Shown here piece by piece: positions 6,760-61,121 of a DNA stretch of 64,000 bases. The notes under the pieces are model-generated. The model saw only the letters and a list, made by a program, of their open reading frames with translations, was not told the origin of the DNA and did no database searches. Numbering within the stretch: the first letter of the stretch is position 1; every line of letters starts with the position of its first letter. The stretch lies in IMG/VR virus record IMGVR_UViG_3300033149_003715, positions 80,174-144,173 of that record. One strand, 5' to 3'. Made by a program: the position numbers and the translations under genes. The stretch comes from a virus.

Positions 6760-6831
6760 AGCCGGTTGTAGGATTTGAACCCACTTTCTCTGATTACAAA
6801 TCAGTTGCTCTACCAATTGAGCTAAACCGGC
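6760..6831 (-). tRNA. tRNA-Thr(UGU)
   Basis: GCCGGTT acceptor, GCTC/GAGC D arm, ACTGA-TTTGTAA-TCAGA anticodon arm, GTGGG-TTCAAAT-CCTAC T arm; no encoded CCA. Confidence 0.92.
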
Positions 6832-25058: not shown

Positions 25059-25193
25059 TTAATTTGTTAAATGATGCTCGATAATACTTAATTGTCCACA
25101 CGCAGCACCATTATCAATTTCTGCTTGTGTAGCTAATGCAACAGCGTATTCGTAACCACTTTCTTCTAGACTTTGCACAATAGTTTCCATCAT
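25059..25193 (-). CDS. 44-aa peptide carrying the RlmN/Cfr C-terminal catalytic motif AACGQL
   Basis: MMETIVQSLEESGYEYAVALATQAEIDNGAACGQLSIIEHHLTN*, preceded by AAGGAG; below the ORF-track size cutoff. Confidence 0.8.
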   Translation of the reverse strand: MMETIVQSLEESGYEYAVALATQAEIDNGAACGQLSIIEHHLTN

Positions 25194-25205
25194 AATCTCC
25201 TTAAT

Positions 25206-26015
25206 TTAAACTAGGTTCATACCTGTAATAATACCATTTCCAAGGGCATGTTTCTCAGAAATTTCATTTTTATTAATTGGGGATAACTTAACAAAAAAAT
25301 GTTCAGGAGGAAAAAACTTCTTTAATTGTGTGATATCAAAATCGTCTTCACTCACTAAAGTTAAATTTAATGTTGTTTTCAGCCTTGAATTAGTACGAAT
25401 CTGACCTAACTCTTCAATCGGTATTTTGTTTTTATATGGAATTAATTCATTACGATATTTATCTACTAACGAATGTAATGAAACCTGTAGTGTAATGTTA
25501 TTTTTAATCCAGCTAAAATCAGATCCACAAATACCTATAGTTGATACGTAATGATGTGTATTAGGATATTTCGCGGATATTTTTTGTATAGCTTCTTTTA
25601 CCGCATTAATATTCAAAAACGGTTCACCCATTCTAGTATAGTTAATCTTAAATTCTTGACTATCTTGTGGGTGATGTTGTGAGTTTCGATTTAAAACAAG
25701 TTCTATCTGTGCTACAATTTCATCCACCGATAAATTTCTCCACTTTTTTAACTTTCCAGTAGCACAAAATTTACATCTGACCGGACAACCACTCATAACA
25801 GATACTCCGATCATCCATCTTTCAGATCTATCACCTAATTTTGTATTGGATAATTTGTTTTGCTTTCTTCCTATAGCATTTTTAGTATAAAAGGGTAAAA
25901 ATGAGTCTGTAGTTTCTATTGGATATCCGTCTGGCGTTTGTAATGCATACACAACACCATTAGCAAACCGTTTATACTTACTGATTTTTAACATATGCTT
26001 TCTCAAATTCTTCAC
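25206..26015 (-). CDS. RlmN/Cfr-like radical SAM enzyme lacking its C-terminal Cys motif
   Basis: IGVSVMSGCPVRCKFCATG, RNLSVDEIVAQ, RMGEPFLN, VSTIG, LQVSLHS, RNELIP. Confidence 0.88.
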   Translation of the reverse strand: MKNLRKHMLKISKYKRFANGVVYALQTPDGYPIETTDSFLPFYTKNAIGRKQNKLSNTKLGDRSERWMIGVSVMSGCPVRCKFCATGKLKKWRNLSVDEIVAQIELVLNRNSQHHPQDSQEFKINYTRMGEPFLNINAVKEAIQKISAKYPNTHHYVSTIGICGSDFSWIKNNITLQVSLHSLVDKYRNELIPYKNKIPIEELGQIRTNSRLKTTLNLTLVSEDDFDITQLKKFFPPEHFFVKLSPINKNEISEKHALGNGIITGMNLV

Positions 26016-26548
26016 TCAAAAAATACCCACCTGTTATCATCATCAATTTTGGGCGACTCATCTATATGAGCAATATAATTTTTTAATTCTTTCCAGGTAG
26101 AAAAAATATACTGATGAGGAATGGTTCCAAACAACCAGTTAGGAGTATTTTGTTTACTTTGTTTTATCATAACTAGACACGGTTTTTTAAGTCGATTACA
26201 CCAAAACAATTCTTCCCAAGTACCACACATTACAATATCTAAATCAAGATATGTAATGGTAAAGCTTGCAAGATCCACGCACCTTAAATCAAAATGACGA
26301 ATTTGCTTAATAATTTTAGTCAACTTGTCATATTCTTCATTCTCCCTCCATTTTTTCATTTGTGGTAGAAGTTGTATTTCGTCATTGACACAATTATTTT
26401 TAGGTTTATTGGTGGGATCAAGAACTATAATTTTTCTATCTACCAAAAATTTGGTAATATTTCTTCTCCAACCTGTACCCTGATCTACCGCATAATCAAT
26501 CGGACCAATTAAGTAACACACATTATTTGCTAAACGGTTTAGTTTCAT
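26012..26548 (-). CDS. nucleoside 2-deoxyribosyltransferase-like protein
   Basis: YLIGPID, WR, LDP, DLRCVD, GTWEE, KKP; start taken at MKLNR. Confidence 0.75.
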   Translation of the reverse strand: MKLNRLANNVCYLIGPIDYAVDQGTGWRRNITKFLVDRKIIVLDPTNKPKNNCVNDEIQLLPQMKKWRENEEYDKLTKIIKQIRHFDLRCVDLASFTITYLDLDIVMCGTWEELFWCNRLKKPCLVMIKQSKQNTPNWLFGTIPHQYIFSTWKELKNYIAHIDESPKIDDDNRWVFFE

Positions 26549-26635
26549 TTGTACTTTACACAATGTGCCATATGAAGATAAAGAAGCCAAATTTTATGTA
26601 TTCGTCCCATCAATATTTAGGTTAACAATAAAATG

Positions 26636-27047: not shown

Positions 27048-27950
27048 TCATTTTATATTGTACATTCTTCCCTTACTTGTCTTTAGAACATACCCCTTGT
27101 TAACCAAAAATGGCTCAATAATATTTTCTATTGTGTAACGGTCAATTTTTGTCATTTCCATTAATGGTTTTAATCCAACAGGACGCTTTATTTTCAGTAG
27201 ACATGAAAGATATAATTTATCATTAGTAGTTAATCCGTTCTTATCTACCCCTTTTAGTTTAAGAGCAAATTGAACAGTTTTTTCATCAACTAATCGTACA
27301 GATTGGCTAACTATATAATCTCTAATCCAAATTAAATATGTATTCAAAATACGTGGCGTACCACGTGCAATTTTTGCTATATGTTTAATGCAATTGTGTG
27401 GCATATTAATATTAAGCTTTGATAAATGCAATTGTGCCAATGTAGTCAACTCATCCACCGAATACAATTGTAAATGTTCTTGTATGGGAAATCTGTCAAT
27501 CAATGGTAAATTTAAACTACCAATCTGAGTAGAACATGCTATGCAAGTAAATTTTGGCAAATCTATAACAATTGCTTCTTTGTCTATTTTATTAGCAACT
27601 AAATTAAGTTTAAAATCTTCCAATACTGTTAATAGTAAATCTTGACACCGCCTATTAAGGCAATGTATTTCGTCTGCAATCAAAATGTCTTGATATTGTA
27701 ATCTAACTAAATATGGTAATAATTGTTTAGGATTGGTAACATTTGCACAGTTAACAACTATAGGAGTTTTGTTAAACTCACGACTAATTGCTAACGCTAT
27801 AGTTGTTTTACCTAAACCTGGTCCACGGGACCCTAATAATATATGAGGCAGTATATCTTGCCTTTTTTGAGAAGATTTAATGTGGATTTTCAATCTAGTA
27901 AGTACATTTGATTGCCCTATGATATCAGACAATGATGTTGGTCTTAACAT
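27048..27950 (-). CDS. ruvB: Holliday junction branch-migration ATPase RuvB
   Basis: LRP..L.DIIGQ, GPGLGKTT, DEIH, PKFT, PLIDRF, ARGTPR, IEPFL...KT.KGR. Confidence 0.93.
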   Translation of the reverse strand: MLRPTSLSDIIGQSNVLTRLKIHIKSSQKRQDILPHILLGSRGPGLGKTTIALAISREFNKTPIVVNCANVTNPKQLLPYLVRLQYQDILIADEIHCLNRRCQDLLLTVLEDFKLNLVANKIDKEAIVIDLPKFTCIACSTQIGSLNLPLIDRFPIQEHLQLYSVDELTTLAQLHLSKLNINMPHNCIKHIAKIARGTPRILNTYLIWIRDYIVSQSVRLVDEKTVQFALKLKGVDKNGLTTNDKLYLSCLLKIKRPVGLKPLMEMTKIDRYTIENIIEPFLVNKGYVLKTSKGRMYNIK

Positions 27951-51296: not shown

Positions 51297-51329
51297 TTTT
51301 AACTCCTTTGCAGGTAATGATTTGTTTAA

Positions 51330-51414
51330 TAGCCCTGATGGGATTCGAACCCATACGTTCAATATGAACAAGGGATTTTAAGTCCCTAGCGTCTGCCAAT
51401 TCCGCCACAGGGCC
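51330..51414 (-). tRNA. tRNA-Leu(UAA)
   Basis: GGCCCTG acceptor, GCGGAATTGGCAGACGC D arm, AGGGA-CTTAAAA-TCCCT, long variable arm, GTTCGAATC. Confidence 0.95.
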
Positions 51415-51419
51415 ACTAT

Positions 51420-60299: not shown

Positions 60300-60351
60300 G
60301 ATTCACTCCATTTTAGTTTGGGGTTGAACAAACAAACATAGACTATGCAAA

Positions 60352-60425
60352 TGAGAACGGTGGGATTTGAACCCACGATCTTCGGATTAAAAGTCCGATG
60401 CTTTACCAGACTAAGCTACGTTCCC
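60352..60425 (-). tRNA. tRNA-Lys(UUU), copy 1
   Basis: GGGAACG acceptor, TCGGA-CTTTTAA-TCCGA, GTTCAAATC. Confidence 0.95.
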
Positions 60426-60578
60426 ATTTCCTTATAAAACACACCAGGGTAGTTTAGTTAATTCACACCAATTTTGGTTGAATTTCCTAAACACCCTGGG
60501 CTTTGTTATCTAATCCCACCAGACTTCTCTGAAGTGGGATTGTTTGTTTTTTCCTCTTGGGTTACGTTCTTGCTGTTT

Positions 60579-61047: not shown

Positions 61048-61121
61048 TGAGAACGGTGGGATTTGAACCCACGATCTTCGGATTAAAAGTCCGATGCTTT
61101 ACCAGACTAAGCTACGTTCTC
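61048..61121 (-). tRNA. tRNA-Lys(UUU), copy 2
   Basis: Identical to copy 1 except acceptor position 2 (GAGAACG). Confidence 0.95.

Follow-up and report, generated by a model that had tools for sequence, protein, structure and literature searches.

RlmN and Cfr are, to our knowledge, the only class-A radical S-adenosylmethionine (SAM) methylases that have been characterised, and both need two cysteines carried by one polypeptide chain. Here we describe a pair of genes at positions 25059-26015 of a 64,000-nucleotide stretch of viral DNA (positions 80,174 to 144,173 of IMG/VR record IMGVR_UViG_3300033149_003715; this whole stretch is called the window, and its numbering is used throughout), which encode an RlmN/Cfr-like core protein that ends before the C-terminal tail and a small peptide that corresponds to this tail. 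Core and peptide very probably form a conserved phage module, that is, a class-A (RlmN/Cfr-type) radical SAM enzyme made as two polypeptides. No paper on a split or a phage-borne RlmN was found in the literature.

RlmN (TIGR00048; PDB 3RF9/3RFA, 4PL1, 5HR6/5HR7 and 6FZ6) is the C2-methyl synthase of A2503 in 23S rRNA and of A37 in tRNA, and Cfr (PDB 9P0P; cryo-EM preprint 10.64898/2026.02.27.707579), which has the same fold and belongs to the same mechanistic class, methylates C8 of A2503 in 23S rRNA. In these enzymes the cysteine of the tail is methylated by SAM, a 5'-deoxyadenosyl radical then takes a hydrogen from the methyl group, and the methylene radical so formed attacks adenine at C2 or C8. 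The other cysteine (C118 in RlmN, C105 in Cfr), the sulfur of which lies about 3 Å from the attacked adenine carbon, acts as the base; removal of the proton triggers fragmentation of the C-S bond, and the C118A and C105A variants remain covalently cross-linked (PMC9692996; 10.64898/2026.02.27.707579). The cryo-EM structure of Cfr with rRNA shows R327, S328, F330 and A336 of the tail in contact with A2503, tail residues 327-336 binding the adenine and C338 holding the methylene, and in both RlmN and Cfr the HhH2 helical domain anchors the rRNA or tRNA (10.64898/2026.02.27.707579).

A first-pass annotation of the window had described a 269-residue RlmN-like open reading frame (ORF) stopping at a TAA ahead of the AACGQL motif, this motif on a separate ORF that follows 12 nt downstream in the same frame behind its own AAGGAG, and glycine in the place of RlmN C118. 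All three readings were confirmed, with 43 residues as a likelier length of the peptide than 44. The features are the following.

25206-26015, minus strand: core subunit, RlmN/Cfr-like radical SAM protein, 269 aa, GTG start at 26015 (ORF listing)
25206-25208, minus strand: TAA stop codon of the core gene (sequence)
25764-25787, minus strand: CxxxCxxC motif of the 4Fe-4S cluster, CPVRCKFC, with C77, C81 and C84 (sequence)
25806-25808, minus strand: GGA codon of Gly70, at the position of RlmN C118 and Cfr C105 (HMMER alignment)
25197-25202, minus strand: AAGGAG, Shine-Dalgarno-like, in the 12-nt spacer (sequence)
25059-25193, minus strand: acidic peptide with AACGQL, 44 aa, in the same frame as the core (sequence)
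25098-25100, minus strand: codon of the putative methyl-carrier cysteine of the peptide (alignment to the Cfr C-terminus)

The core contains the motifs CPVRCKFC, MGEP and SLHS. An alternative ATG start at residue 8 (25994) gives a protein of 262 residues, which fits the homologues (260-262 residues) better than the 269-residue form. Pfam recognises Radical_SAM (E = 3.9e-8)/Fer4_12 only. The best NCBIfam match is TIGR00048, at 72.5 bits with a cutoff of 290 bits that is not reached, and the Cfr models score 56-61 bits, likewise below their cutoffs of 468-550. Sequence matches in the PDB are RlmN and Cfr only. The AlphaFold2 model of the core (predicted local distance difference test, pLDDT, 91.7) retrieves RlmN or Cfr structures as all of the top 11 Foldseek matches in the PDB (E 1.5e-12 to 5.6e-8; template-modelling score normalised to the query 0.59-0.68), the next family being SkfB at 5.7e-4. 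On the model, the core has the RlmN/Cfr fold, which combines a partial TIM barrel and a beta extension.

RlmN thus gives the best matches by both sequence and fold, and the core shares with it the CxxxCxxC, GEP and SLH motifs and the three-strand beta extension, although identity is only about 20% and the gene is phage-borne and not a housekeeping one. The HhH2 N-terminal domain of RlmN and Cfr is absent: positions 1-95 of TIGR00048 have no counterpart, the cluster motif begins at residue 77 instead of 125 as in E. coli RlmN, and residues 10-40 of the model form the three strands of the extension followed by one short helix. Unlike RlmN, the core also has a family-specific insertion of about 25 residues (42-65), which touches the peptide in the model described below. 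HMMER aligns RWMIGVSVMSGC of the core with RTTVCVSCQVGC of the RlmN homologue 6FZ6, putting Gly70, seven residues ahead of the first cluster cysteine, at the C118 position, and the alignment to Cfr 9P0P gives the same result. C77, C81 and C84 are the only invariant cysteines in an alignment of 28 core sequences. The cysteine of STIGICG, which the first-pass annotation had considered as another possible resolver, occurs in the window only, and homologues carry K, E or S in its place. The Cfr substrate contacts S151, S153, S187, N208 and T210, mapped by hand, are not conserved in the phage family, which speaks neither for nor against RNA as the target.

The peptide gene follows the core TAA after a spacer of 12 nt (ATTAAGGAGATT), and its product ends in ...NGAACGQLSIIEHHLTN. 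The AAGGAG, the duplex of which with the anti-Shine-Dalgarno sequence has an energy of -8.0 to -9.2 kcal/mol, is separated by 3 nt from the first ATG and by 6 nt from a second one at 25190; because of this spacing, the 43-residue form starting at the second ATG, which is also the form of database entry P0002, is the likelier product. HMMER aligns the peptide with the Cfr C-terminus through AACGQL, and by this alignment it is the counterpart of the last helix, the last beta-strand and the cysteine loop of RlmN and Cfr; the segment with RlmN Cys355 is therefore a separate gene product in the phage. Fifteen columns are invariant among 25 aligned homologous peptides (L8, A18, A20-I25 and G28-L34, that is ATQAEI..GAACGQL). 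Net charge ranges from about -5 to -9. Cfr R327-A336 and C338 align column for column with ATQAEI..GAAC, so that R327, S328, F330, A336 and C338 correspond to A20, T21, A23, A29 and C31 of the peptide, and Q329 to Q22. R327 is replaced by alanine, and an invariant Glu seven residues ahead of the cysteine takes the place of a Gly in RlmN and Cfr. Cfr further differs in having C105, a fused tail and the N-terminal domain that anchors rRNA. As judged from the alignment, the peptide would supply the reactive cysteine together with the counterpart of the adenine-binding segment of Cfr, in a loop of unchanged length, which by analogy lends modest support to an adenine-like substrate.

Conservation of the two-gene layout

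A relative of the core was present on 261 IMG/VR contigs, and 109 loci, corresponding to 80 distinct sequences, were examined. The residue seven positions ahead of the first cluster cysteine (position -7, equivalent to C118) is glycine in 80 of 80, and in none of the 80 is the core fused to a cysteine tail. The core stops at TAA in 45, TGA in 29 and TAG in 6. In 77 loci the core is followed on its own strand by a peptide gene; two of the other three have little downstream sequence. The frame of the peptide gene relative to the core is 0, +1 or +2 in 11, 33 and 33 loci, respectively, and it begins 4-1580 nt from the core, often with one or two genes between. The peptide has its own ATG in all 80 cases. 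The layout is kept at core identities from 33% to 70%. Since it recurs in every close and distant homologue examined, its presence in the window is not due to chance.

The module occurs in crAss-like gut phages, Ounavirinae, jumbo vibriophages and a Moorella phage, and the two-gene layout was read in four annotated phages of unrelated groups, namely a crAss-like phage, Moorella phage MTATph1, Pectobacterium phage Arno162, where two other ORFs separate the core and peptide genes, and Vibrio phage D479. The cultured phages with a full-length core (n = 8) are exactly the eight with a peptide. Among species-representative genomes and metagenome-assembled genomes (MAGs), 36 loci encode a Gly-type core; none of these is fused, and 32 of 36 have a separate peptide (in one case upstream). 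On the same kind of contigs, 42 of 42 relatives that are neither Gly-type nor canonical are fused, and none has a separate peptide. Glycine at the C118 position and a tail supplied in trans therefore go together without exception within the RlmN-like scaffold. Whether the arrangement of stop, independent start and AACGQL peptide is conserved, and whether it is coupled to the C118-to-Gly change, had been raised as questions in the first-pass annotation; both hold in the two collections (77/80 and 32/36 for the arrangement, 80/80 and 36/36 for the coupling), and no Gly-type homologue is a single uninterrupted ORF, as would be expected if the TAA were private to this genome.

The module was also seen, at 65-67% core identity, on large contigs of cultured Bacteroidales isolates: Segatella copri HF1825 (L138), Lepagella muris NM04_E33 (L139) and Muribaculaceae Isolate-036 (L143). 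These copies may belong to prophages or to co-cultured phages, and they suggest Bacteroidales hosts and possible experimental systems.

Predicted complex, wider family and accessory genes

The complex of core and peptide was modelled from family alignments with the 4Fe-4S cluster and SAM included. It reached an interaction prediction score from aligned errors (ipSAE) of 0.83, as compared to 0.01 for the best of three controls; the mark applied to this score is reached by 58 of 80 solved complexes and by 2 of 110 mismatched pairs. At least 81% of the contacts were common to the runs, and the pLDDT of the partner was at least 68. About 100 confident contacts are predicted at the interface. Peptide residues 13-16 pair with core strand 240-244, and the loop 23-38, which contains the cysteine, touches core residues 83-86 in the cluster loop and 127-129 immediately ahead of GEP, as well as the beta extension and residues 47-49 of the insertion. 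The peptide is thus predicted to dock as the missing last helix and strand, with its cysteine loop over the cluster and SAM site, in the place of the RlmN C-terminus, which is the point that the first-pass annotation had asked such a model to settle. Predicted reassembly of one fold is accompanied by co-occurrence of the two genes (8/8, 77/80 and 32/36), as in a split enzyme.

An exhaustive search that used no profile returned 3186 relatives (E <= 1e-3), and the full-length ones were classified with a quick maximum-likelihood tree, rooted at the midpoint, the main split of which has a Shimodaira-Hasegawa-like approximate likelihood-ratio support of 93. Three groups were obtained. In Group A1, to which the window belongs, position -7 is Gly, the core stops short of the last helix and strand, and a separate peptide acts in trans. 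Group A2 (..RRKIGVSL.SGC..; P0083, L034:3001-3840, and 12 related cluster representatives) has Gly at -7 and the last helix and strand in cis but no cysteine loop, and so misses both RlmN cysteines; the single 6.8-kb locus that was read contained no AACGQ-type peptide. In P0101 and P0148, basal in Group A, position -7 is Thr and the AACGQ tail is fused. Group B has I, L, M, V or N at -7 and a fused ...SNCGQ tail, and in Group C, the canonical one, position -7 is Cys and the tail is likewise fused. The C118 cysteine has thus also been lost outside the split form, and its loss is older and more widespread than the split. By isoelectric point, the cores do not fall apart into the clades.

The cellular ...SNCGQ clade (e.g., P0104 and P0139, matching phrog_24834; core of about 300 residues) resembles the phage system in being RlmN-like with neither HhH2 nor the base cysteine, but its tail is fused and it is found in bacterial and archaeal genomes. 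It is sister to the canonical clade in the quick tree, and no dedicated NCBIfam model exists for it. In both loci read (L042:3510-5936 and L043:3314-5948) the gene is third, after an isochorismatase-family gene and then one for a FAD-dependent pyridine-nucleotide-disulphide oxidoreductase. This clade may be another class-A radical SAM system, with the flavoprotein as candidate recycling partner.

The gene orders among the 81 distinct IMG/VR cores are the following.

Core, peptide: 37 of 81
Core, rSAM2a, methyltransferase, peptide: 21 (+4) of 81
Core, rSAM2b, peptide: 15 of 81
Variant orders: a few of 81

In 41 of 81 IMG/VR loci there is also a second radical SAM gene, which belongs to one of two unrelated types (rSAM2a or rSAM2b), and 27 of these 41 also have a class-I methyltransferase. 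Altogether, three mutually unrelated kinds of second radical SAM genes were found near the module, and they match generic MoaA/viperin/NrdG/QueE-like models only. Neither an accessory methyltransferase nor a second radical SAM gene of the module types was found in the genome of the window, and the second radical SAM genes are therefore optional. All-against-all ORF clustering of 34 loci revealed no conserved partner gene besides the peptide. In the extended operon, the core is followed by a second radical SAM gene (about 245 aa, with a MoaA/viperin-like N-terminal half), a small class-I methyltransferase and the peptide (L129:2449-4540; L130:1525-4594; L005:3826-5077). About 40% of the cores have a cysteine four residues ahead of the first cluster cysteine (GVSCMSGC); in the loci listed, this variant accompanies an architecture in which core and peptide are separated by a second radical SAM gene, an association that may be mere phylogeny.

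The peptide is also found joined to other proteins. In at least 17 diverged clusters it is the in-frame C-terminus of a class-I SAM methyltransferase of about 140 residues (matching phrog_5399 and Methyltransf_11/23), an arrangement confirmed in the DNA of operons with the order core, radical SAM, methyltransferase-peptide. These fusions still have a Shine-Dalgarno-like K/R-G codon pair ahead of the peptide Met, so that free peptide may be made as well. In three clusters the peptide is fused to a second radical SAM protein, and scattered fusions to other genes were seen, some of which are perhaps gene-calling artefacts. In P0031 the peptide lies at the N-terminus of the core, a permuted arrangement in one continuous ORF of 315 residues; this ORF was seen in two samples (L037:44-991; L038:140-1087), followed by a radical SAM gene of phrog_17662. 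Finally, Vibrio phage D479 (OZ195776.1, L004:2240-2587) encodes after the core two head-to-tail peptide units in one ORF (EAGFDAGLAIATDAEV.AGAACGQMAIL), which overlaps a gene annotated as anti-sigma factor. The methyltransferase-peptide fusions, the second radical SAM gene between core and peptide and the tandem peptide of D479 are the new architectural facts.

Fate of the thioether

Hundreds of phages share the two-piece design, and the enzyme therefore probably finishes the reaction differently from RlmN. In the mechanism that we propose, the cysteine of the peptide would be S-methylated as in RlmN, or, in many phages, possibly by the small methyltransferase that is fused to the peptide or adjoins it. 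The 5'-deoxyadenosyl radical would take a hydrogen from the methyl group, and the S-CH2 radical would add to an sp2 carbon, most likely of adenine. With no base at position 70, the route by which RlmN breaks the C-S bond would be missing. The thioether would then be kept, the peptide being a consumable co-substrate left on the target, and the core would take a fresh peptide in each round. The RlmN C118A and Cfr C105A laboratory variants, which lack the same side chain as the phage core, make a stable Cys-CH2-adenine cross-link the default expectation; these variants, however, are engineered dead ends with the cysteine on the enzyme itself, whereas the phage system is natural and conserved and has its cysteine on a separate chain.

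Our tentative choice is a two-piece enzyme that uses up the peptide and leaves the thioether in its product. Persistence of the thioether, itself held just as tentatively, is favoured by the long life of the split, by the independent peptide gene, up to 1.6 kb away from the core, by the tandem double peptide of D479, and by the methyltransferase, fused to the peptide in the clusters described above, that could pre-load the cysteine. We lean slightly towards this outcome over resolution of the adduct by another base. Its most specific form, a peptide-to-nucleobase ligase, appears rather doubtful: each turnover would join the 43-residue peptide, or possibly the methyltransferase-peptide fusion in its place, through Cys-S-CH2 to a carbon of adenine, be it in a nucleotide or in nucleic acid of host or phage, for takeover or counter-defence.

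The first-pass annotation had proposed that the peptide may be cross-linked to RNA. The pairing of split and glycine on which this proposal was built is supported by the co-occurrence reported above, while the cross-linking step is one that we infer, and a number of observations weigh against it and against a retained thioether in general. The C118-less relatives with fused tails (Group B, P0101 and P0148) would by the same logic be suicide enzymes, so that the adduct may be resolvable by some other route. The N-terminal fusion in P0031 and the fusion to a 140-residue methyltransferase are awkward for a small exchangeable tag. Beyond the part that docks and forms the cysteine loop the peptide is not conserved, and the tail after the motif, which is short, acidic and variable, gives no hint of a function after attachment; the core, moreover, lacks the HhH2 domain. 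Stronger translation of the peptide than of the core was looked for as well, but across 77-80 loci their ribosome-binding sites, compared as anti-Shine-Dalgarno duplex energies, do not differ significantly. The chemistry is carried over by homology from RlmN at about 20% identity. Position 70 is invariantly Gly and not just any small residue, and water or another group could act as base in the cavity. The good score of the predicted complex may reflect likeness to solved RlmN structures, since these hold the same tail in cis, and is not an independent proof of binding.

Much of this would be accommodated by an ordinary methyl synthase in two pieces, which we consider a serious, if minority, possibility. 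The peptide would be a stable subunit or a reusable methyl carrier, recycled after the adduct is resolved by a base other than C118, such as a water molecule occupying the Gly cavity, the invariant Glu in the peptide loop or another residue, and the product, within RNA, DNA or a nucleotide, would be adenine methylated on carbon in the manner of m2A or m8A. The large predicted interface, with its strand pairing to core 240-244, looks permanent; the peptide is conserved precisely in its docking and loop part, and it can be fused to the N-terminus of the core. The fused cellular relatives argue that the scaffold can work with the C118 cysteine missing, and the methyltransferase fusion fits a carrier domain that is reloaded. 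The strict invariance of the Gly and of the Glu seven residues before the peptide cysteine points in the same direction. However, any replacement of the base cysteine in RlmN or Cfr abolishes turnover and traps the cross-link, and the core has neither a conserved cysteine beyond the cluster ligands nor an alternative base that we could identify. A recycled cysteine also gives no reason for a split that has stayed stable in phage lineages very distant from one another, with no re-fusion in 80 + 36 loci, and the double peptide of D479 would be useless for a 1:1 subunit.

It is improbable that the peptide is itself the end product, as in the biosynthesis of a ribosomally synthesised and post-translationally modified peptide (RiPP) or a cofactor, with the core modifying its cysteine by S-methylation or further radical chemistry, assisted in many phages by the second radical SAM enzyme and the methyltransferase, and with no nucleic acid involved. 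The gene set does resemble a RiPP cluster, with a small peptide gene last behind a radical SAM gene, and the frequency of the second radical SAM and methyltransferase genes, the absence of the RNA-binding HhH2 domain and a peptide charge that is unfavourable beside RNA would all agree with it. On the other hand, the peptide is almost invariant throughout its functional part and shares homology with the tail of the enzyme itself, instead of showing a conserved leader and a variable core, and in the counterpart of the adenine-binding loop of Cfr the length is unchanged and several residues are retained. No RiPP recognition element/PqqD, SPASM domain, protease or exporter was detected by Pfam on the core or among the locus neighbours, and the accessory enzymes are absent from the genome of the window and from 37 of 81 loci.

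A sequencing error, a private nonsense mutation or a stop read through into a fused protein has a probability close to nil: the peptide of the window does lie in frame just 12 nt past the stop, but the comparative loci refute all three, with peptides in every frame, at very different distances and often behind other genes, each with its own ATG, after cores that end in any of the three stop codons and across the whole range of core identities.

Genomic setting and significance

The viral record is complete (144,173 bp, with direct terminal repeats and a G+C content of about 30%) and contains one copy each of the core and peptide genes. By the core gene, its closest cultured relative is the crAss-like Kehishuvirus 'tikkala', at 64% identity. 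Other features of the window are given below.

26012-26590, minus strand: ORF of 192 aa, the stop of which overlaps the GTG of the core
26932-26904: promoter-like TTGACT-17-TATACT, upstream of the 26012-26590 gene
27048-27950, minus strand: RuvB-like AAA+ ATPase, with all three RuvB Pfam domains (RuvB_N, E = 4e-35)
6760-6831, minus strand: tRNA gene
51329-51415, minus strand: tRNA gene
60351-60426, minus strand: tRNA gene
61048-61121, minus strand: tRNA gene

The overlap of the 26012-26590 gene with the core start suggests translational coupling. The best clue to its product is a weak nucleoside 2-deoxyribosyltransferase-like match (PF15891, E = 0.013), and no counterpart adjoins the module in the other phages compared. 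The four tRNA genes are of the types Thr(TGT), Leu(TAA) and, twice, Lys(TTT).

A large and old family, spread over diverse phages, has thus kept the radical machinery of RlmN and Cfr while moving one of the two cysteines to a peptide and dropping the other. This means either a second way of resolving the Cys-CH2-adenine intermediate or covalent peptide-nucleobase adducts, for which we know of no natural precedent. If the peptide is indeed ligated to its target, this would be a new kind of nucleic-acid modification, and a natural cross-linker would offer a ready means of tagging nucleic acids. The module is present in cultured phages and is therefore directly testable, and either outcome would bear on the chemistry of Cfr-type antibiotic resistance and on the conflict between phages and their hosts.

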